DNA from: a virus
Lineage: Duplodnaviria; Heunggongvirae; Uroviricota; Caudoviricetes
DNA: 64,000 bases
IMG/VR virus record: IMGVR_UViG_3300032030_000019
Direction: 5' to 3' (one strand)
In this document: piece after piece, positions 3,538 through 58,199 of the stretch
Position numbering within the stretch: position 1 is the first letter of the stretch
Layout: each line of letters begins with the position of its first letter
Program-made: the position numbers and the translations under genes
Notes under the pieces: model-generated
Told to the model about the DNA's origin: nothing
Database searches by the model: none
The model's input: the letters and a program-made list of their open reading frames with translations, nothing else

Positions 3538-4449
3538 TTACGTCCCACTTTCAAACTCCAACGTTACACCACAATGAGGACATGTATTCTGTTCTCCTGT
3601 AAACTTTCCACCACATTCAGGACATTCGTACTCTTCCTCCTCATCCTGTACCTCAATCATATCGCACAAGTATTCATACGTATTCGCCGACATATGTTCT
3701 TTACCCTTGCCATACGTAACCAAGTCGGCAAGATCGTCAGAAGAAAACAGGCGCGCACGTACAAGATCTGAGATGATGTGTATAGGAAATTCCTGATGAT
3801 ATATAAAATCATCCGCGAGTGCTTGTACACTGATCTTATAATCCAAGAGCTCCATAGCTAATCTTAGATTAACCCTATTTCGTCCTAACGTAATCCCCAT
3901 CATATCATTAGGTACGTGAACCAATGCATGACGTCTCCACTCATCTAGATCGACTCTCATTGGTAATGTTAAATTAAGTGCATCAAGTATAAGTTTTTCC
4001 TGTCTCTCATTACCTGTAATCTGAATAACATCCATCGCACGATCATGCAGTACTTCACACAGATGTTCTTTATTAGCACCCCACTTTCCAATGAACGCAC
4101 CCATGTCACCCATAACACTGATCTTTGATCGTTCTCCGGGAACACGTACGGCTTTATATACGGTTACGTCACCATTACGTACGCCATCAATATCTTGCGT
4201 TAGTTTCAACAGATAATCAACGTTTCTGTCTAAGCTCAACGTATATCCTGTTGGCGTACGTTGAATACCTGTTACAAGTACATCTATGCAACTTCCGGTA
4301 TCACGTTCACTGATATACGGGACGTGAGCTTTCGGAAGTAATCCATCGATCTTTTGGTGATGAAACAAGATTAACCACTTGTTATTAACGTCTTGTGCGA
4401 TCTCCCCCGTTAATACGTCGCCTACGTGTTTTTCCAAACTACTTTTCAT
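3538..4449 (-). CDS. NusA-like RNA-binding protein (S1 + KH + C-terminal Zn ribbon), paralog 1
   Basis: S1-like N-terminus (VGDVLTGEI...GLLPKAHVP...TLSL), KH GxxG motif (AFIGKWGANK...MDVIQITGNE), CPECGG...CPHCG zinc ribbon. Confidence 0.5.
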   Translation of the reverse strand: MKSSLEKHVGDVLTGEIAQDVNNKWLILFHHQKIDGLLPKAHVPYISERDTGSCIDVLVTGIQRTPTGYTLSLDRNVDYLLKLTQDIDGVRNGDVTVYKAVRVPGERSKISVMGDMGAFIGKWGANKEHLCEVLHDRAMDVIQITGNERQEKLILDALNLTLPMRVDLDEWRRHALVHVPNDMMGITLGRNRVNLRLAMELLDYKISVQALADDFIYHQEFPIHIISDLVRARLFSSDDLADLVTYGKGKEHMSANTYEYLCDMIEVQDEEEEYECPECGGKFTGEQNTCPHCGVTLEFESGT

Positions 4450-15177: not shown

Positions 15178-15483
15178 TTATACTCCTTCTGAAGGTGGTA
15201 ATGTCTTACATTTCAGTTTATTCTGAGTACATCCCTTACACGATTCACTACGTGTAGGATCGAGTTTGAGGTGTAGGTTAATAGGATCTTTAGCTGTGGT
15301 CATTCCTCGCAGACTCAGATATGGCACATCTTCTAAGTTAGGACTCCATGCCATTTTAACACCTAATCTCCGTAAATGTTGATCATCCACAAAACCTTCT
15401 ATCGTAACTATTTTTATAATCTCTTCTGTAAACGGACAATGTACATACAGATATATCATATTATGTCTCCTTAAAAAAAACAT
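15178..15483 (-). CDS. hypothetical protein (101 aa)
   Basis: ORF. Confidence 0.4.
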   Translation of the reverse strand: MFFLRRHNMIYLYVHCPFTEEIIKIVTIEGFVDDQHLRRLGVKMAWSPNLEDVPYLSLRGMTTAKDPINLHLKLDPTRSESCKGCTQNKLKCKTLPPSEGV

Positions 15484-15522
15484 ACGTTAGCGCCACGTAC
15501 GGCACTAACGTATATACACACG

Positions 15523-21030: not shown

Positions 21031-21067
21031 AAAAAAAACCGACGCATATATAACATACACACGTCGG
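21031..21067 (-). terminator. rho-independent terminator after 21100..22125
   Basis: minus-strand stem CCGACG/CGTCGG with loop ..tatgttatatatg.., followed by T8. Confidence 0.55.
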
Positions 21068-21099
21068 CCTATCTAATATAAGGACACAATAATTTTAGC

Positions 21100-22125
21100 C
21101 TATTCCACTACCTCAAGACGATGTCCACACTTTGGGCATTTGAATGCGAGAACATTATCAGGCATTTCAATTTCCGTCCCACAATCAGGACATGTCGTCT
21201 CAATACACCCTTCTTTTCCCTCATCCTTTTCCTCATCATCCTGGAACTTAAAATCAAAAAGCCCCTCAATGATTCGGAATGTTTTATCGGGGATCCTTCC
21301 GTCAGGGTTGCCCGCATTTACGATCTCTGCGAGTTCCGCTGTTGTCTTAATCCCTTCCGCCAACAGATCATGCATACACGCTGATGGTAGTTCTTTGCCT
21401 AATTCAGGGAAATAGTTGGATTGCACATCTAATATTATTTTATACCCAACAAGTTTCTGAATCAGAGCTAAGTTCGTGCCCTTACGTCCGAGGATTTTGA
21501 ATACATCCTGACGTTGGCACGTTACGTGGGCTGTACGTTCAACCATATTCACGTTGATACTACTCACGTGAATATCATGTAAGGCGTTACGTATATACTT
21601 AGATACGTCAGCATCCCACATGATAAAGTCTATTGGCTGACGTATAACCTTTTCGATGTTGTACTTTTCAGCCGTACGTATTGCCGACGTTAGCACAGGA
21701 AATGGATCCGTATACCCATTTGACGTTATGGCTACTTTGATACCACAACCTTCATATACAAACCCCTTAATCTGAATATCACCGTCAGCAATAGGCGTAC
21801 ATATGCTGGCAAGAACGTACGGCAACTGTTTTCGTCCACGTGCCAACGTATAGACAACTTGTGTTTTATTGTCTACACTATTGAACAATTCTCCGATTAT
21901 TGTTGCCCATATTTTCTTGCCAACGTTTGTGTCTACGTCGGGCTTACATTTGTGCTGACGTCGACCCTTCTTTTCTTCCTTGGGTCTATTATCTTTCGGA
22001 ATGTTATCAGCTGGCAAAAAACCTATTCGTTTTCTACCAGCTTCAACGAAAGTACACATATATTGCCCTTTCGTCTCATTCCGAATTTCTGCTTCAACCG
22101 TTCTCCCAATTAGTCGTTCGCTCAT
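21100..22125 (-). CDS. NusA-like RNA-binding protein (S1 + KH + C-terminal Zn ribbon), paralog 2
   Basis: S1-like N-terminus (GRTVEAEI...RIGFLPADNI), KH motif VFKILGRKGTNLALIQKLVGYKIILDV resembling NusA KH1, CPDCG...CPKCG zinc ribbon. Confidence 0.55.
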   Translation of the reverse strand: MSERLIGRTVEAEIRNETKGQYMCTFVEAGRKRIGFLPADNIPKDNRPKEEKKGRRQHKCKPDVDTNVGKKIWATIIGELFNSVDNKTQVVYTLARGRKQLPYVLASICTPIADGDIQIKGFVYEGCGIKVAITSNGYTDPFPVLTSAIRTAEKYNIEKVIRQPIDFIMWDADVSKYIRNALHDIHVSSINVNMVERTAHVTCQRQDVFKILGRKGTNLALIQKLVGYKIILDVQSNYFPELGKELPSACMHDLLAEGIKTTAELAEIVNAGNPDGRIPDKTFRIIEGLFDFKFQDDEEKDEGKEGCIETTCPDCGTEIEMPDNVLAFKCPKCGHRLEVVE

Positions 22126-23164: not shown

Positions 23165-23208
23165 AAGTTAAAAAGAAATAAGCCCCTCACGTATAACGCA
23201 AGAGGCTT
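23165..23208 (-). terminator. probable terminator after 23236..23676
   Basis: imperfect stem AAGCC(c)TC/GA(g)GGCTT followed by ATTTCTTTTT. Confidence 0.35.
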
Positions 23209-23235
23209 ATCGTTATAATGACGAAAAACTTATCA

Positions 23236-23676
23236 TCAGAACTTCTTCTCGACAGCCACTACAAATCGAGAAAGGGATTCAGGGTCATCGCCCTTCAGTT
23301 CATCACCATTAATCCAATAAACAATAAGTTCATCACCTGACCCTTTAGGGAAATATCCTACATAATCAGGGAAAAGCACTACATTGTCATTTTCATCATG
23401 AAAGATGTACTTTGGGGCTATATACCGACCCTTACTTTGATCGAAACATACTGTAATAGTCTGACTCTGTGTACAATTTGCCACAACATGTCGTACTCCG
23501 TTTTTGAATTCGATCATTTCCTTAGACAGTAATACAAGCTTCTGACAATCAGGTGTCTTTAAGATAGGCGTACATAATGTCATTCCTATCTCGAGATTTT
23601 GCAACAGAAGCTTCTCCTGTCCTGGAATATTTTTTAATTTCTGATCCTTGATAAATTTTTCTGCCAATTTATGCAT
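23236..23676 (-). CDS. hypothetical protein (146 aa)
   Basis: ORF. Confidence 0.45.
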   Translation of the reverse strand: MHKLAEKFIKDQKLKNIPGQEKLLLQNLEIGMTLCTPILKTPDCQKLVLLSKEMIEFKNGVRHVVANCTQSQTITVCFDQSKGRYIAPKYIFHDENDNVVLFPDYVGYFPKGSGDELIVYWINGDELKGDDPESLSRFVVAVEKKF

Positions 23677-23739: not shown

Positions 23740-25062
23740 TTATCCAGCTGGGAATACAACCTCAAACTGTTTATATGGGCATGTATCCATTATATTGTTT
23801 GTCAGAACAACAGTCTTGTCTTCAAACAACACAGGACTCCAATCAGTATAATTGTCTGTCATAATAACAATCAAATCAGGATCCATTCTATGGTCCTGTA
23901 CATATACGCTGATCGCACCCATATCTGTACCACCACCTTCTGTAGTAAGCACTTCGCTTTGACATACATCAAAGTCCTGTATTACACGACAAACAGCAGT
24001 GTCACATTCAAGGATAGTGACTTTAATCTCAAGATCATCGGAATCAGCTATTGATTTCATAATTCCATACATCTTTTCGGTTAAGCCACTCATACTCCCC
24101 GACACGTCCATTCCGATGACAAGATTTAATTCAGTGACATAATCTACACGTGCCGGATAAATTATGTTTTTAATTAAGCCTTGTAGTCTACGATTAGGTT
24201 TTCTGAATGTTCTATGCTCGAATCCATACTGCATCTGTGATGACTTCGTATGTAGCACAGCCTTGAATACATCCTCCCAATTGTAGACAATCTTTTCCAC
24301 TTTTTTCAATGCATCGCTCGGATTAGAACCCTTTCCTTGGGCTTGCGCTGCCGCGGATTCACATTCGCCTCTGAGCTTCTGCACGGCCGTCGTGGTTTTT
24401 CCATCCTTGTATCCTTTCATGCTTATATCCATACCATCAGGACCTAATGGTACACCTAATGGCACACAGTTCTTACACTGTGGATATTGGCTAGGATCGA
24501 AAGGCATAGGAATAGGATTCCCATTCGCATCTTTTGGACAATTCTTGCAATCTTTACAAGAAGATGCAGATTGAACCAAGAGTTCCAAATACTCCTCATA
24601 AGTTCGATACTCAGGGAACGGCCGACCATCCTTCAGCTTGTAATTACTTGGCATTTGTGGTGTTCTATGAGGATACTCAATATACTGATTTATCTCCATA
24701 TCTGCCGCAATATTATGCACGAGAAAATTTACATCCTGACGTGGGCTACGTTTGATACGCGTATGATGATCAAATATATAATGCATTAATTCATGCAGTA
24801 TATGACCACACAACTCTTGACTCACGACATTCTCTTTATCAGTGTTTGTCATTCCCGTACCTTGAGGCTTATACTTTTCATAAAGTTTCTTTACATATTC
24901 CCTATTAAAAGAATACTCAAGGTTCGCTGACATCGCACCTGTATCGAGTGTTTCGTTGTCTTCCGCATAGCGCATCTGTGTAATCACAGGTCCGTAAAAA
25001 GGATGATCTTTCGCAATCTTTCTCAAGGCAACCATGATCATATCGATTACTTCATCGACCAT
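23740..25062 (-). CDS. von Willebrand factor A protein with N-terminal HExxH metallopeptidase-like region (DUF2201-like), MoxR partner
   Basis: HILHELMHYIFDHH (HExxH), MIDAS motif LVIGMDVSGSMSG (DxSxS), adjacent to an AAA_5 ATPase. Confidence 0.7.
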   Translation of the reverse strand: MVDEVIDMIMVALRKIAKDHPFYGPVITQMRYAEDNETLDTGAMSANLEYSFNREYVKKLYEKYKPQGTGMTNTDKENVVSQELCGHILHELMHYIFDHHTRIKRSPRQDVNFLVHNIAADMEINQYIEYPHRTPQMPSNYKLKDGRPFPEYRTYEEYLELLVQSASSCKDCKNCPKDANGNPIPMPFDPSQYPQCKNCVPLGVPLGPDGMDISMKGYKDGKTTTAVQKLRGECESAAAQAQGKGSNPSDALKKVEKIVYNWEDVFKAVLHTKSSQMQYGFEHRTFRKPNRRLQGLIKNIIYPARVDYVTELNLVIGMDVSGSMSGLTEKMYGIMKSIADSDDLEIKVTILECDTAVCRVIQDFDVCQSEVLTTEGGGTDMGAISVYVQDHRMDPDLIVIMTDNYTDWSPVLFEDKTVVLTNNIMDTCPYKQFEVVFPAG

Positions 25063-25110
25063 GTTTACCTCCTTTTACTAACACACCATATTCTCCCATT
25101 GTCCCGTAAC

Positions 25111-26319
25111 TTACCAACCGATATAAGGCGATAATTCGTCGTATCCCTCTATCATGCTTGACAAATCAATACCTTTACCTTTCAATTCCTTCGGCTGAAT
25201 AATACCCTGTTCAATCAGGATATCAATATGACCGCGAAGGAACTTCATGATAAGAGTCGGGTATCCATGGTAATCACCGTATTTGCCATCTTTGTTATAG
25301 ATGACATTAATAACCTGAGCCCAAAGAGGTAAATACTTCTTAGGATCAAGCTGAAAGTAATATGCCATGGATGACATAATCTTGCTCACCTGGTCGTGTT
25401 CTTCTGGGTCTGGTAATTTGAAGTCTTTCTCATGACCGACGAAAGATGATAATTCGATACCGAGACCTTTGTAATCACGACAAAATGACAAGAAAAGCGG
25501 AGCCGCGGCAATACCTACTGTACCACACAATATCTCCAACAGGTAATCCGGTTCGTTCTGATCCAATGTTGCCATAATCTGAGTTGCAAGATCCCACGTT
25601 CTACCCGTTGGGAATGCTACATCGGTTTTCTTCACAATTGTCGTCGGCGTGATATTATGCATATCAGGATTCTGTTTAATGAAATCCACAGTTGCCAAAC
25701 GATATTGTAGAAGTTTCTTCCGACGTGTCTCAAGATCGTTGATGATCGGACGCTCGTAGCTCTGGAAGCCACTTACAAGTCCTTCACACCACTGCACCGG
25801 ATCAGGTTCTACAAACAAGTGTACAAGTCGATTCATCAATGCTGTACTCATCTGTTTGTTGCCTGCTGTATCCGTATAGTTTCCTGCTGCTACACGGAAT
25901 GTTGTCTCAGGGATACTAAACTCTCCATAATTACAATCCTGAATAATAGAGAGCAACGCTACCTGGATACTCATTGGACAAGTATTAATCTCATCAAAGA
26001 AGATGATACCATTTCGACACTTTTCCAACTGTTTGATGTGTAACGGAACAGAATATTTCATTTCCATTCGTCCATCTGCACCTGTATCCAAATACGGAAT
26101 ACCTCCGAGGTCCGTCGGGTCTGCCTTATTACCCGACTTGATATATGTGGGCACTTTTAAGATCTTGCCCATGAACTTTACGGTGGCTGTTTTACCACAG
26201 CCTGGCGTACTCCAAATCATTGTTGGGACACCTGCATGATACAGTCCCAACAGTAATTTAATTAAGGAGTTATGCTTTACCACTGGATTAACTCCACCGT
26301 CCACTTTCTTTTTTGCCAT
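25111..26319 (-). CDS. MoxR-like AAA+ ATPase (AAA_5 family)
   Basis: Walker A STPGCGKTAT, Walker B IIFFDEINTC, size and sensor region typical of MoxR/RavA/CbbQ-type ATPases. Confidence 0.8.
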   Translation of the reverse strand: MAKKKVDGGVNPVVKHNSLIKLLLGLYHAGVPTMIWSTPGCGKTATVKFMGKILKVPTYIKSGNKADPTDLGGIPYLDTGADGRMEMKYSVPLHIKQLEKCRNGIIFFDEINTCPMSIQVALLSIIQDCNYGEFSIPETTFRVAAGNYTDTAGNKQMSTALMNRLVHLFVEPDPVQWCEGLVSGFQSYERPIINDLETRRKKLLQYRLATVDFIKQNPDMHNITPTTIVKKTDVAFPTGRTWDLATQIMATLDQNEPDYLLEILCGTVGIAAAPLFLSFCRDYKGLGIELSSFVGHEKDFKLPDPEEHDQVSKIMSSMAYYFQLDPKKYLPLWAQVINVIYNKDGKYGDYHGYPTLIMKFLRGHIDILIEQGIIQPKELKGKGIDLSSMIEGYDELSPYIGW

Positions 26320-26379
26320 TTAAGGCTCCTTTTACTAACACACCATGTTCTCCCATTGTTAAAAAAAATATTCAAAACG

Positions 26380-26637
26380 TTATTTTACGTCATCTTTTGT
26401 ACCCTCCTTTGGCACATACATAGGCAGGTATGACCATTTCAAAACGTCTTCTACGTGGATTACGCCTGTGCCCTCGTATTCCCAATATCCAAAGACGTTA
26501 GAACGTTTATCATAATATCCAGCCACAGGTACGCCCGCGTTTACGTTTGCGTACGGCTGAATAATGATCGTCTCGTGATGGGGTGGTAATTTATCTTTAA
26601 GACTGTACCACTCCATAATTGGTTGCATGCCGCTCAT
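26380..26637 (-). CDS. hypothetical protein (85 aa)
   Basis: ORF. Confidence 0.4.
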   Translation of the reverse strand: MSGMQPIMEWYSLKDKLPPHHETIIIQPYANVNAGVPVAGYYDKRSNVFGYWEYEGTGVIHVEDVLKWSYLPMYVPKEGTKDDVK

Positions 26638-27175
26638 TTGTACCTCCTATCCTCTCGATTGGGGCTTCTTTTACCATAATCGAGAATTTCTCCATATCTA
26701 TAAAATCCTCCAATATCCCATTCTTGACAAATAAAATTGGGAGGATATTTATCTTCTCACCGTTCGGAAACTTCTTAATTGGCTGCCACGTAAGAAGCAT
26801 ATCCTTACGTTCATCTTTCAGGTCAGTATTATACGTACTACGTCTGTACTGATCTACAACCGATGGGGAGAAGAACCGACGTAGCTTCTCAACGTCGGCA
26901 GCATATGGCTGAACCTTTTCCCAATCGTAGGCAAACAGCACCACGACGTCTTGACATTCAAGCACCTCATGTATAACCATATTCTTGAATGTTCGTCGAG
27001 TAATACGGCTGATATGCTGGACCTCATTTCCGACTTTTACGCTTGCACCGACGTGAAAACCACCTATATGCGTGGTTTTAGGGTGCTCCTCGCTCATAGC
27101 CTCGCCCTGAAACCAGTTCGGCACGTATTTCTCGTCTATTTTTGCTAGCGTTATCACTCTTTTGTTCTCAACCAT
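26597..27175 (-). CDS. hypothetical protein (192 aa)
   Basis: ORF. Confidence 0.45.
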   Translation of the reverse strand: MVENKRVITLAKIDEKYVPNWFQGEAMSEEHPKTTHIGGFHVGASVKVGNEVQHISRITRRTFKNMVIHEVLECQDVVVLFAYDWEKVQPYAADVEKLRRFFSPSVVDQYRRSTYNTDLKDERKDMLLTWQPIKKFPNGEKINILPILFVKNGILEDFIDMEKFSIMVKEAPIERIGGTNERHATNYGVVQS

Positions 27176-27449
27176 TCTTAGCCTCCGTTTTTGTATTTTG
27201 GGATTTTAACTTATCCCTTAACTCACAAGCACGTGAATACTTAACTTGCCCACGTGCATACAACCATGCGACGTAATCGCCCTCATGCGAACCGTCGATG
27301 ATTTTTAATAACTTCGCATCATCGCGATGTTGTGCTTTCTGACCATTTACCCAGATTTTGCACAGACCATGATAATACTCTACCTCAATTGACCGTAATA
27401 TCATGACCCCATCTTCATTACTAACGTACGTATAAGCTCTATTCCTCAT
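27168..27449 (-). CDS. hypothetical protein (93 aa)
   Basis: ORF. Confidence 0.4.
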   Translation of the reverse strand: MRNRAYTYVSNEDGVMILRSIEVEYYHGLCKIWVNGQKAQHRDDAKLLKIIDGSHEGDYVAWLYARGQVKYSRACELRDKLKSQNTKTEAKNG

Positions 27450-27585
27450 ATATACTGCCTTGCCTTATACATACCACACACTGCCTCAGGACTATGTGAC
27501 TGTAGATCCCGAGAACACACAGGCATAATACTTGATCCACACCTGTATGCACAATTCTTACAACATTCGCTCATATGCAACCTCC

Positions 27586-27801
27586 TTACACGCCAAGAAA
27601 GAGTTTAACTGCACCTATCATGAAGATACAGAAACTCACACCCGTTATGATTGCTGACACCATACCAACGTATGCCGCAATCGTGGCAATTACGTCGGTT
27701 GTATCTTCCTTTCTCGCTGTTAACACGAGAGAAGATAGTATCGTTACAGCGACTGAAATTATCATTGTAACGAAAACCCAAAACAAGAACACCTTAAACA
27801 T
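27586..27801 (-). CDS. small two-TM membrane protein (71 aa)
   Basis: two hydrophobic helices (VFLFWVFVTMIISVAVTILSSLVL; VGMVSAIITGVSFCIFMIGAV); holin-like topology, unproven. Confidence 0.35.
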   Translation of the reverse strand: MFKVFLFWVFVTMIISVAVTILSSLVLTARKEDTTDVIATIAAYVGMVSAIITGVSFCIFMIGAVKLFLGV

Positions 27802-27866: not shown

Positions 27867-28988
27867 TTATCCTTTCAAAACCATTCTAGCTTGTTCTGCA
27901 TTTTCAAAGATGCACTCCTTGCCGTTTATGATTATCTTAACTTTATTGTTAGAAGAAGTATTGTTGACTTTTACATCTACATTTACTTCAATCTTTGGTT
28001 CTGACGTTTCCTCAGGTTTAACACGGAACTCGAACCTCTCATCGTCAAAATACTCAGGTTTTATAGTTACCATTTTAATCCCAGGACAAAGATCTCCCCA
28101 TTCATTCGTTGAGCTTCGTCGTATCTGAATAGGCTTGTCCTCCTTGAAATACGCCCATTTAACCTCATAGTTTGGGTCGTAGTAGGCGAATCTATAGTAT
28201 CCTGCGCTACCTTGAAGACAAAAGGGATACACATCGCTCTCTGAGTAGTGTGATAGTGTGCCCATCTCGCTAGGTCCTTTATGATGAATCGCCCTTTGAA
28301 GGGTTTCTATATAATCACCACAAAACACTTTTTTCCCACGCAACACCTCATCCCATTCAAAATGTACGAATTTTGAATTGTATAAGTTCACTTCTTTTCT
28401 CTTTTCGGTGTTGTTCGTTTCAGTCATATTAACCTCCTTTTTTGGTCTCCTAGTTATAGCACAATCAGAATCGACTATTCCTTCCGGTCTAATCTCTAAC
28501 TGTGCGGGTATTGAAATATTTTTCAGGTTAGAACAACCAAAGAATACATGGCTACCAATACTTGTTACGCTATCGGGTATCGTGATACGAGTTAGACTGT
28601 TGCAATACTTGAATGCTAGATCACCTATATTCGTCACACTGTCAGGTATAACCACATTCATCAAACTGTAGCAGTCTCTGAATGCATTATCGCCTATGTT
28701 CATCACGCTGTCAGGCATCGTCACACTCGTCAAGCCAGTGCAGCCATAGAATGCATAGTCACCAACAATTGTTACTCCGTCCTTTATTACGACTGACTCA
28801 ATCTGCTGACACCCGTAGAATAGGAAATCGGGAACCACGCTATTCTTGCCCGTATTTATGACTACTTCCTTGATGTCATAATACCCCACTAGACCATTAT
28901 AAGCTGGTCCACTAACACCTTCGAACGACCAGATTACTAGCCGATCATCGTCTATACAGAAATCGTTCTTTATTCTAAGAATACCCAT
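27867..28988 (-). CDS. BspA-type leucine-rich-repeat protein
   Basis: tandem units of about 23 aa (IPDSVTNIGDLAFKYCNSLTRIT / IPDSVTSIGSHVFFGCSNLKNIS); start set at MGILRIK with AGGAGG 6 nt upstream. Confidence 0.7.
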   Translation of the reverse strand: MGILRIKNDFCIDDDRLVIWSFEGVSGPAYNGLVGYYDIKEVVINTGKNSVVPDFLFYGCQQIESVVIKDGVTIVGDYAFYGCTGLTSVTMPDSVMNIGDNAFRDCYSLMNVVIPDSVTNIGDLAFKYCNSLTRITIPDSVTSIGSHVFFGCSNLKNISIPAQLEIRPEGIVDSDCAITRRPKKEVNMTETNNTEKRKEVNLYNSKFVHFEWDEVLRGKKVFCGDYIETLQRAIHHKGPSEMGTLSHYSESDVYPFCLQGSAGYYRFAYYDPNYEVKWAYFKEDKPIQIRRSSTNEWGDLCPGIKMVTIKPEYFDDERFEFRVKPEETSEPKIEVNVDVKVNNTSSNNKVKIIINGKECIFENAEQARMVLKG

Positions 28989-29030
28989 TTTACGCCTCCT
29001 ATTGCTACGCAACCGTTTCGCTCACGCTCA

Positions 29031-29055: not shown

Positions 29056-29096
29056 ATGTGTTAAACAAAAAAAAACCTGACGTACATATAACATAC
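29055..29096 (-). terminator. rho-independent terminator after 29135..29674
   Basis: 8-bp stem CTGACGTA/TACGTCAG, loop tgtatgttatatg (nearly the same loop as the 21031 terminator), then GTTTTTTTTT. Confidence 0.65.
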
Positions 29097-29134
29097 ATAC
29101 GTCAGATCTGATTGATATAAAAACAGGAAGTTTG

Positions 29135-32129: not shown

Positions 32130-32158
32130 TTCTGACGTAATCATGGTCATTACGTCAG
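32119..32158 (-). terminator. strong rho-independent terminator at the end of the structured non-coding island
   Basis: 10-bp stem CTGACGTAAT/ATTACGTCAG, 7-nt loop, followed by AAATTTTTTTTT. Confidence 0.7.
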
Positions 32159-32335
32159 ATAAGAAAAAGAAAATGCCAACGTCAATGCGTAATACAAAAA
32201 TATTTGGGGAGGTTGTACTACTATGAGCTGACGTAACGTTTAGGGTAATACGTACACAACATACGTAGGGGACGTTACGCCAACATGCGCATTAACGTTG
32301 GCATATATTTTTATCTTCTCGCCATCCTTACGTAG

Positions 32336-34104: not shown

Positions 34105-35340
34105 TCAACCTCTTGTCCCTTCAGCAAATCTATTTTTTTTAATATGCACTCTTTTCGGAAATGCATTTTCCCCGATTAATACTCCACTGGGTATAGTTAC
34201 ACTCGTCAGTTGAGTACAATCCTCGAATGCATAATCACCAATGCTCATTACACTGTCAGGTATTGTTACACTCGTCAGTCTGCTACAACACAAGAATGCA
34301 CCACTGCCTATGTCTGTCACGCTGTTACCTATTGTTACACTCGTCAGACCATCACAGCCACTGAATGCATAATCACCTATGCTTGTCACGCTGTCAGGTA
34401 TTGTTACACTCGTCAGACCATCACAGCCACTGAATGCATAATCACCTATGCTTGTCACGCTGTCAGGTATTGTTATGCTCGTCAGACCGATACAGCCACT
34501 GAATGCATAATCACCTATGCTTGTCACATTACTCGGTATCGTCACACTCGTCAGGCCGCTGCAGTTATAGAATGCATGGCTGCCTATGCTCGTCACACTG
34601 TCTCCTATCGTCACACTCGTCAGACCATCACAGCCACTGAATGCATAATCACCTATGCTTGTCACACTGTCAGGTATTGTTATACTCGTCAGACTACTAC
34701 AACCGTTGAATGCATGGTTGCTTATACTCGTCACGCTGTCAGGAATAATCAAGTCTGTAACAAGCTTTCCATCCACCTCAAGTTGGTAGGTGAAATTAAA
34801 AGGCCAAGGAGCCCAGTGAATGTGACACCATTGCTCGATAGTCCCCTTATATTTTATTAGGAGGGACTGATTTAACAATGCATTCTCCCCAATATAGCTA
34901 ACAGTATCTGGGATCACGACACTGTCATTTTTCATATATGAGATCAATCCAAAGGGTAGATACACAATCCCTTTCATGAAGACCTTGTATCTTTTTTCCT
35001 CAAACTTGGGGCCTTCATCCTTGTCCCAACCGAGGCTATTTACTTCCTTGACCTCTTGAAGATACTCATCCAGGATCTGGGTATCATTTAAAACATAATC
35101 CTTCCACTCTATTACATTGGAGTATGGAAGTTTGTATCTGTTTTTATAGAGGAGTCCCCAATTATACTCCTCAAGGTTTTGATGTTTTGCCCTGTTCATT
35201 ACAGAGAGAGCAGTGGTTCTGTTAATTGTCTCCATCTTTTGGATCTTGGCTTTTTCTTTGTCAAACTCCTTCATACCCGGCGTCCTCCTTAACAAACACT
35301 TACGTCCGACATAACGCAAGAGAGGTTTTACGGAACCCAT
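34105..35340 (-). CDS. BspA-type leucine-rich-repeat protein with near-identical tandem repeats
   Basis: at least 9 consecutive units of 23 aa (IPDSVTSIGDYAFSGCDGLTSVT) encoded by near-identical 69-bp repeats. Confidence 0.7.
   Translation of the reverse strand: MGSVKPLLRYVGRKCLLRRTPGMKEFDKEKAKIQKMETINRTTALSVMNRAKHQNLEEYNWGLLYKNRYKLPYSNVIEWKDYVLNDTQILDEYLQEVKEVNSLGWDKDEGPKFEEKRYKVFMKGIVYLPFGLISYMKNDSVVIPDTVSYIGENALLNQSLLIKYKGTIEQWCHIHWAPWPFNFTYQLEVDGKLVTDLIIPDSVTSISNHAFNGCSSLTSITIPDSVTSIGDYAFSGCDGLTSVTIGDSVTSIGSHAFYNCSGLTSVTIPSNVTSIGDYAFSGCIGLTSITIPDSVTSIGDYAFSGCDGLTSVTIPDSVTSIGDYAFSGCDGLTSVTIGNSVTDIGSGAFLCCSRLTSVTIPDSVMSIGDYAFEDCTQLTSVTIPSGVLIGENAFPKRVHIKKNRFAEGTRG
34190..34770 (-). repeat. 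69-bp near-identical tandem repeats (coding; LRR units)
   Basis: e.g. ccatcacagccactgaatgcataatcacctatgcttgtcac... recurs almost verbatim at a 69-nt period; this also explains the spurious plus-strand ORF 34210..34860. Confidence 0.8.
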
Positions 35341-54435: not shown

Positions 54436-54630
54436 TTAAATTTTATATTCTTTTCGGTCCTCGAACTCTTGTGCTCTACCTTTGTTCCAATTTTTAATAG
54501 CCCGATAATACCCAACGATGCGAGAATATACCTCGGTCTCTTGGTCTCTCTTGCCATCAAGTATGTCTTTACGTCGTTGTTCTAGATCGGCTAAGCGATC
54601 TGTAAGTTCTTGTTTACTTGCTACTCGCAT
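54436..54630 (-). CDS. nrdD: glycyl-radical domain of NrdD encoded as a separate, overlapping ORF
   Basis: SRIVGYYRAIKNWNKGRAQEFEDR matches the RxxGYxxxxxxxNxGK glycyl-radical tail of NrdD, but lies in the -1 frame, overlapping the nrdD stop by 10 nt. Confidence 0.6.
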   Translation of the reverse strand: MRVASKQELTDRLADLEQRRKDILDGKRDQETEVYSRIVGYYRAIKNWNKGRAQEFEDRKEYKI

Positions 54631-57600
54631 TTGTTTGTTTCCTCCATTTCTCGTTTCTGAATAGCTTCTTTAACTTCACGAATTTGAGCATCCACTCTTG
54701 CAAGCTCCTCATCCCGACATTTAGGACAAAATTTTTGTTCACCATCCAAATATCCATGTTTGGGGCAAATAGAGAACGTTGGTGAAATCGTTAAGTATGG
54801 AAGTCTGTAATTAGTAAAAATTGTTTTTATAAGTTCAGCACACGCTTTCCAGTTGTGTATCCGTTCGCCTAAGTACGCATGAAACACAGTTCCACCTGTG
54901 TACTTTACTTGAAATTGATCTTGGATATCAAGAGCCTCGAAAATATCATCAGTAAAAGTAGCAGGTAACCAAGTGCTATTGGTATAATACGGATCTCCAT
55001 TATCATTTGCTGTGATAATATCGGGGTAGTTTTTCTTGTCATGTAAAGCAAATCGATACCCAGTACCTTCAGCAGGGGTTGCCTCTAGATTAAACAATAA
55101 ACCAGTCTCTTCTTGAAAATCAGATAACCTTGAATTAATGTAATCCATTAGTTCGTTTGTAAAGGCTTGCCCCCATTCATCAGTAATATCATGCTCGTCA
55201 TTAGTGAAGTTTCGTATACATTCATTGCATCCATTGATACCTATTGTATTAAAGAAGGTGTCATAAGACTGAACATAAACTTTACTGTACGGATAGAATT
55301 GTCCTTCAAGTAACTCTTCAATGGTCTTCCGCTTGATTACTAGAGACTCTTTGGCCATAACCAAGAGACAATCAAGCTCTTTATAGAACCCCTCTTTATC
55401 TCCCTTGAACCTATAGCCAAGTTGTGGTAAATTAATTGTAACAACACCAGTAGAACCAGTTTTTTCAGCAGCTCCAAACAGACCACCACCTCGCTTCATT
55501 AACTCTCTTTTATCGAGTCTGAGTCGGCAGCAATTATGTGTCAAGATATTATTAGCATAGAATGTATGTCCTAACGACTCACTTTGATTATAATCGTCGG
55601 GAGAGTCAACTTCAAGATCATAAACTAATCCATCATAATCAATCAGCTCGATAGATACTATTTCATCTCTATAATTGATGTAACCACGATATGAATCGTC
55701 ATTATTGCTTGGATCGAATACCAAAAGATTGTATCCTGCATTACGAATAACCTGATTCCAAGGCTTCTTTACGTATGGGGAATCCTCAATCTCATCATTA
55801 TAGTAACAATGTGTATCTCCTGAAAAATTAGTCTCTAATTCTATTACTAAATTCTTTGAGGGGATATAGAAATCCGCGATCCCAGTAAAGTTGCCATTAG
55901 AATCATTAATAACAAACTGATGCTTATACTCAAGCCCCAATGCGTCCAACTCTTTTCTGAATTTAAATTCCCAGTCAGAAGCTATGGTTGTGTGCCCATT
56001 AGTTTCTTGAACATGATCCCAATAGCCTTGTGAATGGATTGGGTTATTGGCTTTCCATCGTTCACTAGACGCTTTTCGACATTTTTCGCTAACTGGATGC
56101 CCCATACTAGTTTGTGATATTTTTTTCATGCGTTCACGGTTTTGTTCATCGGTCATGGTACGCATAGGATTGCTATTTCCTTGCCATCTACCAAGTCTTT
56201 TATTTCTATCGGAACACTTTTGTCGATAAAGTTTACCTTTTTCTTCACCGAAACGCTCTTCACATGTTTTACCACGATTCTTGTTATTCCACAACTGAAT
56301 AGTATTTTTCTCATATCTAACAGAGAATTTATCGCCAACTTTTAAGTCTTTTGCTTGACGAATGATCAATGATTTATCATTCTTATTTCTTTCTGCATAG
56401 ATTAAGTGCGGATGATCTGGTGTTGTAATGAGAATTTTACCAGATTGAGTTGTAAACTTGTACATCTTTCCAGAATACTTGATAACTATTTTCCTCTTGA
56501 TCGGATAGTATCCCCAACGTGTGAGAACTTTAATTTCATTCTCATCATAGTTATCGAATATATTCTTAATAGAGTCCTCTTCCCACTTACCATCTGGATT
56601 CAGAATTCTGATAACGGTATCAGGCATTATACACATGCTTCTTATATCACTTGGGCTTAGATCAGAATTGATGAAGTTCTGGAAATAAGGCATACCATAT
56701 TTACATGTTATTTCAAATAGCTTCTTGGCATTTGATGATTCCCAATCGAAATCCTTAGTTATGGAGTAAGTACAGATTGGGTAACTGTACAATCTGCCAT
56801 CTGCATCGCCCTTCTCGAACAAATCAAGAAGAACTTCATTAAACATATCCATCTCTTTCTGACAATCTTTATACTTGAAATCTACTTGTTTTCCACCGAC
56901 CCAACAATATGTTTCTGCTAAATCATTAGGAACAATCCAATCTAGAGTAAAGTTACTGAAGGGTGCTTGACTATTCGCCGATATAAATTCATGTCCATTA
57001 ATGTCTTGAAAGAATACTACGCCATTATCTGTTGTAGGGCACCAAACTTCTCCGTCATAAGGTATTTTCTCGACCTCAACTGGAATATTTATACGCTCAA
57101 TAGATTCAAATTTCGAGGTTAAACCAAACCCCTCATCTACGCTTAATGGAACAGTAAAATTAGCCTCTTCATCTAAGAACTCATATGCTCTGTGAATTTC
57201 TCCGTTACCAGTATATACCCGATGCTCATATGATACTATTTGCTCATAATTACAGTCTTTGTTATATAATTTAATCAAGAACTCTTTATCATTAAGCTTC
57301 CGAGTTATTTTCTTAACTGAGTTAAATTCAACTTTACGAGTCTTAGGATTTACCGTATATACCACATCTCCGATCTTAACTTCAGAACACTGTTTCCAAC
57401 CATCCTGTGTTAAGAGTCTTGTTGAGATCGGTACACACCCCCATCTACTACTACAATTGAGACCAAACAAAAGCGACTGAACACATTGATAAACCTCTTT
57501 GCGAGAAAGGTTATCTATTTTTATAAAAGGAGCCACATAAGTATCAACACTAGAATACGCCATGGCTCCAGAATTTTCGTTTTGTAGTAGGCCATTGTAG

Positions 57601-58199
57601 TTAACTAGCTGATTGAAGAGTGTGCTTAAATGCTTAGCTGGTTTTGATGTTATTTTGCCGGGCACACCACCAATACCTTCCCTGATTAAATCTAGGAAAT
57701 TATGTCCAACGCAATAACATGCCAACATACTTAAGTCATGTATATGAAACTTGCAAGCTCGATGTGCATCGCCTATCTCTTTGGGATATATCTTATTCAA
57801 CCAGTAGTTAGCCGTAACAGCCCCACTATTATTGAGAATCATCCCACCAAGTGAGAAACCCACAGACGCATTCTCCTTAACACGCCAATCACTTTCGTCT
57901 AGATATTTGTCAACCAAGTCTATCGGACGTATGCTACGTAACTGCTCACGATTATACCGATATTTGATGTATGCACGAGCGACGTTAGGATTGTACTTCA
58001 TCAGAACTTCTTCTATCATATCCTGAATCTGTTCTACGTTCATTTTGTCTACGAGCCTATCCTCTAATTCATGAAAAACAAAGTTTCCCATCTCAGGCTC
58101 ATTTGTTGCATGGCAGGCTTTATCGACGGCATCTTGTATTTTCAGACGGCTAAATTCGACTTCTCTACCATCACGTTTAATAACTGTTTTTAATTCCAT
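54621..58199 (-). CDS. nrdD: anaerobic (class III) ribonucleoside-triphosphate reductase NrdD precursor interrupted by two inteins
   Basis: N-terminal ATP cone; NrdD blocks (YSSVDTYVAPF, SQAPFSNFT, CCRLRLD...GGGLFG) and a C-terminal Zn ribbon; exteins total about 670 aa. Confidence 0.9.
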   Translation of the reverse strand: MELKTVIKRDGREVEFSRLKIQDAVDKACHATNEPEMGNFVFHELEDRLVDKMNVEQIQDMIEEVLMKYNPNVARAYIKYRYNREQLRSIRPIDLVDKYLDESDWRVKENASVGFSLGGMILNNSGAVTANYWLNKIYPKEIGDAHRACKFHIHDLSMLACYCVGHNFLDLIREGIGGVPGKITSKPAKHLSTLFNQLVNYNGLLQNENSGAMAYSSVDTYVAPFIKIDNLSRKEVYQCVQSLLFGLNCSSRWGCVPISTRLLTQDGWKQCSEVKIGDVVYTVNPKTRKVEFNSVKKITRKLNDKEFLIKLYNKDCNYEQIVSYEHRVYTGNGEIHRAYEFLDEEANFTVPLSVDEGFGLTSKFESIERINIPVEVEKIPYDGEVWCPTTDNGVVFFQDINGHEFISANSQAPFSNFTLDWIVPNDLAETYCWVGGKQVDFKYKDCQKEMDMFNEVLLDLFEKGDADGRLYSYPICTYSITKDFDWESSNAKKLFEITCKYGMPYFQNFINSDLSPSDIRSMCIMPDTVIRILNPDGKWEEDSIKNIFDNYDENEIKVLTRWGYYPIKRKIVIKYSGKMYKFTTQSGKILITTPDHPHLIYAERNKNDKSLIIRQAKDLKVGDKFSVRYEKNTIQLWNNKNRGKTCEERFGEEKGKLYRQKCSDRNKRLGRWQGNSNPMRTMTDEQNRERMKKISQTSMGHPVSEKCRKASSERWKANNPIHSQGYWDHVQETNGHTTIASDWEFKFRKELDALGLEYKHQFVINDSNGNFTGIADFYIPSKNLVIELETNFSGDTHCYYNDEIEDSPYVKKPWNQVIRNAGYNLLVFDPSNNDDSYRGYINYRDEIVSIELIDYDGLVYDLEVDSPDDYNQSESLGHTFYANNILTHNCCRLRLDKRELMKRGGGLFGAAEKTGSTGVVTINLPQLGYRFKGDKEGFYKELDCLLVMAKESLVIKRKTIEELLEGQFYPYSKVYVQSYDTFFNTIGINGCNECIRNFTNDEHDITDEWGQAFTNELMDYINSRLSDFQEETGLLFNLEATPAEGTGYRFALHDKKNYPDIITANDNGDPYYTNSTWLPATFTDDIFEALDIQDQFQVKYTGGTVFHAYLGERIHNWKACAELIKTIFTNYRLPYLTISPTFSICPKHGYLDGEQKFCPKCRDEELARVDAQIREVKEAIQKREMEETNKCE
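55533..56633 (-). mobile_element. intein 2 (367 aa) in NrdD with embedded Vsr/DUF559-like (PD-(D/E)xK) endonuclease
   Basis: starts CIMPDTVIRIL, block B TTPDHPHL, ends VYDLEV...GHTFYANNILTHN followed by Cys +1 at the CCRLRL active-site region; internal WEFKFRKELDALGLEY...GIADFYIPSKNLVIELE resembles DUF559. Confidence 0.75.
56973..57437 (-). mobile_element. mini-intein 1 (155 aa) in NrdD
   Basis: starts CVPISTRLLT (block A), TxxH-like block B (SYEHRVYT), ends YDGEVW...NGHEFISAN followed by Ser +1; parallels the end of intein 2. Confidence 0.65.

Follow-up and report, generated by a model that had tools for sequence, protein, structure and literature searches.

A MoxR-class AAA+ ATPase and a vWA protein with a zincin-like head in an uncultured tailed phage form a divergent relative of the N4 gp24/gp25 pair

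What does a tailed phage do with a AAA+ ATPase gene followed directly by a gene for a von Willebrand factor A (vWA) protein that has a metallopeptidase-like head? Such a pair lies in the IMG/VR virus record IMGVR_UViG_3300032030_000019 (Caudoviricetes), in the 64,000-nucleotide (64-kb) stretch of DNA analyzed here (the window), with both genes on the minus strand and 48 nt between them (Table 1). The original prediction, made without database searches, read the two genes as a MoxR-vWA pair, mentioned metal insertion, maturation, and conflict systems as settings in which such pairs work, and offered an assembly chaperone or an antidefense module as candidate roles. As judged by sequence comparison, the window pair is a divergent copy of a phage and bacterial module typified by gp24 and gp25 of coliphage N4, and analogy with characterized MoxR-vWA couples suggests that the module is probably a two-polypeptide, substrate-specific AAA+ protease or maturation factor. 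Both genes are real, because they have strong homologues (E-values reaching 1e-124 for the vWA protein and 1e-230 for the ATPase) and identical proteins are found on 3 to 5 independent metagenome contigs, the longest of which is ∼133 kb (JGI 3300028888). Megablast comparison of the 4.2-kb region with 50,697 phage records gives zero matches, and this is therefore a phage without a close cultured relative.

The motifs named in the original prediction are present in both proteins: Walker A PGCGKT (residues 39 to 44) and Walker B FFDEIN (residues 107 to 112) in the ATPase, and HELMH (residues 90 to 94) and DVSGSMSG (residues 319 to 326) in the vWA protein. [quoted passage not shown] The ATPase scores above the curated cut-off for AAA_5 (PF07728; 27.6 bits, cut-off 22) and matches phrog_1297 'ATPase' (4.6e-43). 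Its N-terminal AAA+ core (∼residues 20 to 185) is followed by an all-helical C-terminal region (∼residues 190 to 402, ∼210 residues) whose conservation is limited to the family. The AlphaFold2 model (mean predicted local distance difference test [pLDDT] score, 85.9) has a helix-2 beta-hairpin insert between beta2 and beta3 (strands 75 to 79 and 85 to 89) and a pre-sensor-1 hairpin, with short strands at ∼130 to 135, before beta4. Both elements are hallmarks of the AAA+ clade containing MoxR, MCM, the chelatases, and midasin/dynein. Foldseek comparison with the PDB returns MCM subunits, MoxR (2r44), and NorQ, including NorQ-NorD complexes, and the top PDB match by sequence profile is to the Midasin AAA_5 modules (3e-26). 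No substitution occurs at G40, G42, K43, D109, E110, N147, R164, or R240 among 19 aligned ATPase homologues, and N147, R164, and R240 are assigned as sensor 1, the Arg finger, and sensor 2, respectively, by their positions in the model and by alignment with Midasin. With complete Walker A and B, sensor 1, Arg finger, and sensor 2 motifs, the ATPase is by all appearances catalytically intact and is predicted to form a hexamer and hydrolyze ATP.

The partner protein matches DUF2201_N (PF13203, 'putative metallopeptidase domain') at 34.5 bits (cut-off 23.2) and PHROG 1314 at 8.4e-34; its match to VWA_CoxE (22.3 bits) is below the cut-off of 26.4, and the Pfam model PF09967 (DUF2201, VWA-like) does not detect the vWA domain. 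The structure model of this domain matches vWA folds, including the VWA domain of NorD. Conservation was assessed in alignments of 38 to 62 homologues and in 37 phage and bacterial loci. Invariant or near-invariant are H90, E91, H94, and H99 of the zincin-like motif, N117, D121, and N125 on the next-but-one helix after it, W262, and the full MIDAS, the five residues of which (D319, S321, S323, T379, and D403) are kept in 36 to 37 of 37 sequences. A conserved loop, T-Y-x-[RK]-P-x-R-R, is found at residues ∼285 to 293. The HExxH core is substituted in only two sequences, and the catalytic Glu is kept in 35 of the 36 that cover the motif. Activity is likely retained, because the catalytic and MIDAS residues together are kept in 34 to 37 of 37 sequences. 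A profile of the N-terminal domain aligns its edge strand and HExxHxxxxH motif with the M48 peptidase 3c37 (E 2e-4) and also matches the minigluzincin MJ1213 (4e-3) and BepA (0.04); in the AlphaFold2 model, HExxH is on helix 82 to 96. The head thus appears to contain an M48-like or minigluzincin-like active-site segment. The linker carries a Cys-rich insert that is specific to the window protein, being absent from its closest homologues in the alignment, and that is modeled with low pLDDT; it is a possible zinc knuckle. In cellular homologues, this region of the linker contains a CGS motif that is conserved.

How is this pair related to known phage proteins? Hidden Markov models (HMMs) built from homologues of the window proteins score N4 gp24 at 156 bits and N4 gp25 at 149 bits. 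N4 gp25 itself matches PF13203 at 293 bits, where the window protein reaches ∼34, and it matches PF09967 (158 bits), which misses the window vWA domain. The two pairs have the same gene order, strand, domain architecture, AAA+ motifs, HExxHxxxxH/D/N motif, and MIDAS residues, and both occupy a nonstructural genome position near replication genes. They differ in sequence (∼18 to 25% identity; ∼18% for gp25), in the 50 additional residues of the window ATPase and the Cys-rich insert of the window vWA protein, and in the phages that carry them, the window belonging to a ∼133-kb uncultured phage and not to an N4-like podovirus. A tblastn search with the vWA protein matches a single phage record, and N4 gp25 is linked only by profiles. 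Among 1.84 billion cluster representatives, the vWA-protein profile finds 31,630 at E<=1e-3 and 12,090 at E<=1e-30. The window proteins belong to a divergent branch: approximately 29 metagenomic relatives have E<1e-38 and are separated by a gap from the main family, which begins at E of ∼1e-12. That this branch conserves all of the catalytic residues strengthens the case for functional peptidase and MIDAS sites.

The pairing is strictly conserved. The original prediction had suggested looking for co-occurrence in related phages, and in all 29 of the IMG/VR loci with upstream DNA an ATPase gene that matches the profile precedes the vWA gene and shares its strand. Most loci have the two genes next to each other or overlapping, and a minority have intervening open reading frames (ORFs), with separations of up to a few kilobases. 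The same order is found in N4, Salmonella phage TR2, PA5oct, a 349-kb Vibrio jumbo phage, four closer relatives, a probable bacterial contig, and Streptomyces, where the genes overlap by 4 nt. In PA5oct the genes are 3 kb apart, with small ORFs and a homing endonuclease between them; the 'putative homing endonuclease' three genes past the ATPase was considered as the partner and is unrelated to the window vWA protein, and profile matching identifies the following gene, EST35_0340, as the true partner.

Two metagenomic loci have other arrangements or settings. A 446-kb contig (ENA ERZ25068966; L045:3382-9392) carries two tandem copies of the pair in the order vWA, ATPase, ATPase, vWA, following an SMC/AAA_23-type ATPase and near a Metallophos gene, and may represent a different, expanded version of the module. 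On a 74-kb contig (JGI 3300027864; L007:4276-7122), a closely homologous pair, with 35% identity between the vWA proteins, is preceded by an HTH_XRE regulator and surrounded by CsgG-like, Y1 transposase, GyrI-like, and ParE toxin genes, a context that looks bacterial or mobile-element-like rather than that of a lytic phage.

The pair is not new; it has already been described and is widespread, including in Streptomyces gene pairs and jumbo phages. N4 gp24 and gp25 carry the annotation 'similar to S. coelicolor proteins 1 and 2'; both belong to the set of 14 core genes that the N4-like phages have in common, and their transcripts are middle ones (PMC4193335; PMC2784036; PMC10783043). The same architecture, a MoxR AAA+ ATPase with a vWA protein carrying an N-terminal metallopeptidase, was reported as a 'chaperone-cochaperone' pair in the group 2.2 jumbo phages by Iyer, Anantharaman, Krishnan, Burroughs, and Aravind in 2021 (PMC7824862), and the chaperone framing of the original prediction agrees with theirs; the pairs of PA5oct and the Vibrio jumbo phage match the profiles derived from the window. 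Searches of the literature for DUF2201, COG3864, N4 gp24/gp25, and Schitoviridae with von Willebrand return annotation-level mentions only. Database labels (PHROG 1314 and RefSeq, e.g., for gp25 of N4 and gp15 of TR2; Table 1) would instead make the vWA protein an HNH or homing endonuclease that happens to sit beside an unrelated ATPase. Those labels are all that favors this idea; Pfam scans of the window protein, N4 gp25, and TR2 gp15 find no HNH match and refute it, leaving it with a negligible probability. With its strong DUF2201_N and DUF2201/PF09967 matches and no HNH domain, gp25 shows the label to be a misannotation that has been propagated.

The surroundings of the pair indicate when it is likely to act. 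In transcription order, it is preceded by genes for an NrdD-like reductase, a primase, a DnaB-like helicase, an exonuclease, a 1374-aa DNA polymerase, and two leucine-rich repeat (LRR) proteins, and it is followed by many small ORFs, a KH/Zn-ribbon protein, methyltransferases, and an HNH protein; no structural gene is recognizable in the window. We compared 118 neighboring ORFs (at least 165 aa, within 4.5 kb) from ∼33 phage loci with the PHROGs. DNA polymerase recurs most often (10), followed by its exonuclease subunit (4) and, with 3 members each, nucleotide kinases and HNH endonuclease. The 25 most recurrent families include none for heads or tails, although the loci fall into a few related groups and these counts are not independent. 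Since the neighbors are mostly replication genes and the N4 genes are expressed in the middle phase, an intracellular, replication-phase role is indicated rather than one in late morphogenesis. The reductase match is in a 1192-aa ORF (positions 54621 to 58199, minus strand), of which the C-terminal ∼300 aa are NrdD-like (anaerobic ribonucleotide reductase; 1e-67); the ORF is unusually long for NrdD, and part of its long N-terminal extension matches an uncharacterized PHROG.

The two genes also have a nearly identical 32-nt leader in common. One copy precedes each gene (Table 1), and the two follow the consensus AATGGGAGAA[C/T]ATGGTGTGTTAGTAAAAGGAG. Exactly two copies occur in the window even when 3 mismatches are allowed, with 0 expected by chance. 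In order, the leader contains a Shine-Dalgarno-like GGGAG, a mini-ORF of three codons (ATG GTG TGT TAG), and the AAAGGAG of the gene itself. In the closest relative, locus L038, the vWA gene is preceded by a degenerate version; there is no exact match to the leader in IMG/VR and no RNA-structure signal (z -0.2 and +0.35). We infer that the leader is a common translation-initiation or regulatory element that coordinates the synthesis of both subunits.

At the level of transcription, a scan of the whole window for strong hairpins with a T-run finds seven strong terminator-like hairpins on the minus strand, and a set of long-stem hairpins (about 11 to 15 bp; Table 1) splits the minus-strand gene array into units. 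Two consecutive hairpins, 29109-29073 and 23211-23177, bracket a 5.9-kb unit in which the pair is accompanied by a BspA-type LRR protein, five small ORFs, and a 146-aa ORF. A scan for sigma-70 promoters finds 26 against 21.6 expected, which is not above chance, and was not used. Hairpins 29109 and 21070 have most of their sequence in common (GACGT[A/G]TGTATGTTATAT...CGTC), and the stem of hairpin 32159 has a TCTGACGTA core in common with 29109; the three look like a repeated terminator element.

Do other genes of this unit belong to the system? The original prediction placed three small ORFs downstream of the pair and proposed that they may belong with it. They are actually 5′ of the ATPase, since all of the genes here are on the minus strand. 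Their position within one terminator-bounded unit means that they are probably cotranscribed with the pair, and to that extent the association stands; they have no match in the family libraries (Pfam, PHROG, NCBIfam, and PADLOC) and no homologue by phmmer in ∼35 related loci, and as far as these comparisons go they are not conserved partners. The 146-aa ORF has homologues in L038, at the same position (2.5e-75), and in L039, elsewhere (3e-29), is absent from all of the remaining related loci, and has no Pfam or PHROG match; on this distribution it is a lineage-specific companion. Only three of the 13 flanking ORFs compared with the related loci by phmmer are matched, namely the 146-aa ORF, the KH/Zn-ribbon protein (in the nearest relatives), and the LRR protein, whose matches are marginal (E 2e-4 and 5.5e-3).

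A few further observations concern these neighbors. A second BspA-type LRR protein is coded in the window, and in L004 one more LRR_5 gene is found just beyond. Of the two tiny ORFs with which the run of small ORFs opens, the longer looks by eye like a two-span membrane protein and the shorter is a Cys-rich peptide. Proteins related to the KH/Zn-ribbon protein occur twice near the pair in L039 (9422-10402 and 12117-13034), and a second window ORF of 303 aa (positions 3538 to 4449, minus strand) has the zinc-ribbon PHROG 9188 in common with it at the C terminus.

Table 1. Features of the ATPase-vWA locus and its surroundings (window positions unless a locus or protein is named)
Feature	Position	Strand	Description
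ATPase gene	25111..26319	minus	402 aa; MoxR-class (AAA_5) AAA+ ATPase
vWA gene	23740..25062	minus	440 aa; DUF2201-type zincin-like head and vWA domain
Zincin-like head	vWA protein, N-terminal; motif at residues 90-99		HELMHYIFDH (HExxHxxxxH), followed by a helical linker
Cys-rich linker insert	24466..24558 (vWA protein residues 169-199)	minus	C169-x2-C172-x2-C175 ... C196-x2-C199
Minimal vWA domain	vWA protein, C-terminal, residues ∼311-436 (∼130 aa)		MIDAS D319-x-S321-x-S323, T379, D403
Leader copy 1	26326..26357	minus	Ends 6 nt before the ATPase start codon; AATGGGAGAACATGGTGTGTTAGTAAAAGGAG
Leader copy 2	25069..25100	minus	Ends 6 nt before the vWA start codon; 31/32 identical
Terminator-like hairpin	29073..29109	minus	15-17 bp stem and T-run; closes the preceding unit
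Terminator-like hairpin	23177..23211	minus	14-16 bp stem and T-run; 25 nt past the 146-aa ORF; closes the pair's unit
Other terminator-like hairpins	21036-21070, 32131-32159, 15480-15515	minus	
Three small ORFs (93, 192, and 85 aa)	26380..27449	minus	5′ of the ATPase
Two tiny ORFs (71 and 44 aa)	27446-27801	minus	Head of the small-ORF run
146-aa ORF	23236..23676	minus	Directly 3′ of the vWA gene; final gene in the unit
BspA-type LRR_5 protein	27867-29012	minus	1.3e-35; first gene of the pair's transcription unit
BspA-type LRR_5 protein, second	34105-35340	minus	phrog_18805, 9e-67
341-aa protein	21100-22125	minus	NusA-like KH domains and C-terminal LysW-type zinc ribbon; 1.6 kb after the pair
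N4 gp25 (NC_008720)	L042:2165-3307		Labeled HNH in RefSeq
TR2 gp15 (NC_055921)	L001:5029-6129		Labeled HNH in RefSeq

Several known systems combine some of these elements. NorQ-NorD, CbbQ-CbbO, and RavA-ViaA likewise have a MoxR-class hexameric AAA+ ATPase encoded beside a MIDAS-bearing vWA protein, but their vWA partners lack a peptidase head, and the known metalloenzyme on which these act has its gene nearby. Acidianus two-tailed virus (ATV) p618 (MoxR) and p892 (vWA) are also a virus-encoded MoxR-vWA couple, likened to the window pair by description only; the virus is archaeal, the couple has no peptidase domain, and its function is tied to extracellular tail growth (as cited in PMC7824862 and PMC7159879). 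FtsH and other AAA+ zinc proteases are functional analogues only, in that a AAA+ motor works with an HExxH zincin. In FtsH, however, the motor and an M41 peptidase are in one membrane-anchored chain, whereas the window system would consist of two soluble proteins joined via the vWA domain, with a zincin segment resembling M48 peptidases and minigluzincins and not M41. The vWA-MoxR-VMAP ternary conflict systems (Kaur et al. 2020, PMC7159879) have the MoxR and vWA core in common with the window pair, which differs from them in having no VMAP, effector, or EAD domains and no PADLOC match, and in that its metallopeptidase is a constant N-terminal domain of the vWA protein, not a variable effector.

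In NorQ-NorD, a 'finger' of the vWA protein inserts into the pore of the hexamer, carboxylates of the target are bound at the MIDAS, and ATP hydrolysis tugs the vWA-protein linker (PMC9976466, PMC13036017). By analogy with NorQ-NorD, CbbQ-CbbO, and Rea1, a hexamer of the window ATPase would dock one vWA protein, and the MIDAS metal would capture a carboxylate on the surface of one specific target protein. ATP hydrolysis would pull on the vWA protein and remodel the target, and the fused M48-like zincin would then cleave the target or an adaptor. The target may be a phage-encoded or host complex required by all of these phages, and because this is a core middle-phase pair among replication genes, action inside the infected cell, in the replication or early-assembly phase, is expected. 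Maturation of a phage protein complex is our leading guess. Among the roles to be apportioned, maturation of a phage assembly is a fair contender that falls short of an even chance, takeover of the host is improbable, and other replication-phase remodeling takes up what these two leave.

Several points weigh against a two-polypeptide protease or maturation factor. The searchable literature has no biochemical or genetic data on any family member, and zinc binding and peptidase activity of the head are putative and unproven. Two residues are candidates for the third zinc ligand: D121, on helix 113 to 125, is conserved in 35 of 36 sequences, and E156 is invariant in the closer homologues and present in 22 of 37 in the wider set. 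E156 lies 62 residues past H94, a spacing that we take to be M48-like. The vWA domain is minimal, and no NorD-type finger is evident in its model, such that the ATPase may dock in a manner different from that of NorD. The ATPase falls below the cut-off of the MoxR-proper model AAA_3 (PF07726; 19.9 bits, cut-off 27) and passes that of AAA_5, and is therefore MoxR-like in the broad sense and not MoxR sensu stricto. The gene neighborhood identifies no target.

Other explanations place the same proteins in different processes. The most substantial is that the pair is a virion-assembly chaperone, the first option of the original prediction, that folds or assembles head or tail parts and processes structural proteins, as predicted for the same architecture in the group 2.2 jumbo phages with ATV as precedent (PMC7824862), although that role was proposed by the ATV analogy only, and the neighbors here and in most related loci are replication genes. 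In N4-like roseophages and LIT1, a mid-expressed 'second structural module' adjoins the gp24/gp25 homologues (PMC4193335), a tail-fiber-like gene lies 2.5 kb upstream of the pair in TR2, the PA5oct ATPase was detected by mass spectrometry in virion preparations (annotation note; PMC7318152), and core-gene status suits an essential morphogenetic function. Set against these are the lack of a structural gene in the window, where the pair follows a DNA polymerase, helicase, primase, and NrdD block, and the neighbor survey, in which DNA polymerase is the commonest family. N4 gp24 and gp25 are moreover transcribed in the middle rather than the late phase, and neither is one of the five virion proteins named for N4 (gps 52, 54, 56, 59, and 67) (PMC4193335), and the pair is also found on Streptomyces chromosomes with no virion context. 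We thus hold assembly to be possible and rather less than an even bet.

A host-takeover or antidefense protease, which would destroy or disable a host defense factor, nucleoid protein, or protease early in infection, fits the nonstructural early or middle genome position and the presence in the same transcription unit of a BspA-type LRR protein, a kind of module typical of protein-protein interactions, and MoxR-vWA cores do serve bacterial conflict systems (PMC7159879). PADLOC, however, finds no defense-system match, its hits being weak and to generic AAA models, and Pfam and PHROG detect neither a VMAP nor an effector domain in the pair or six flanking ORFs. Antidefense genes are normally accessory and fast-turning. 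The pair is conserved in bacteria themselves, its catalytic and MIDAS residues are near invariant with no sign of arms-race diversification, and it belongs to the 14-gene core of the N4-like phages, whose hosts differ widely (PMC4193335). An accessory antidefense role is thus unlikely, given a core pair with near-invariant active sites and the null result from PADLOC. Less probable still is a metal-cofactor insertion chaperone of the chelatase-like NorQD, CbbQO, CoxDE, or CobST type, with HExxH as a metal site only. Both proteins have folds matching NorQ and the NorD VWA domain, and most characterized MoxR-vWA pairs act on metalloenzymes (PMC9976466), but there is no NCBIfam or Pfam match above cut-off to CobS/CobT, BchI/BchD, NorD, CbbO, or CoxE, no metalloenzyme client gene recurs beside the pair in the loci examined, and the HExxH Glu is retained in 35 of 36 sequences, as for a hydrolase and not a mere metal site. 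With no chelatase or cofactor-enzyme neighbors, metal insertion, which the original prediction mentioned for MoxR-vWA pairs in general, is unsupported here.

The finding itself is an expected domain pair for a phage, and it is one that recurs in the N4-like core set, in jumbo phages, in many uncultured phages, and in actinobacterial chromosomes, with the vWA protein mislabeled as an HNH endonuclease in many records. The neighborhood survey shifts the emphasis away from the usual guess of virion assembly and toward a replication-phase role. A bolder and rather doubtful proposal is that the pair represents a new type of ATP-dependent protease, in which a MoxR hexamer would work with an M48-like zincin tethered through the vWA domain of a separate chain, the MIDAS would select the substrate, one phage or host protein would be cleaved in the replication phase in N4, jumbo phages, and this 133-kb phage, and the 32-nt leader with its mini-ORF would keep the subunits in step. 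If the pair is a MIDAS-selected protease, then two core genes of the Schitoviridae would gain a function, and MoxR-vWA couples would carry out proteolysis in addition to remodeling.

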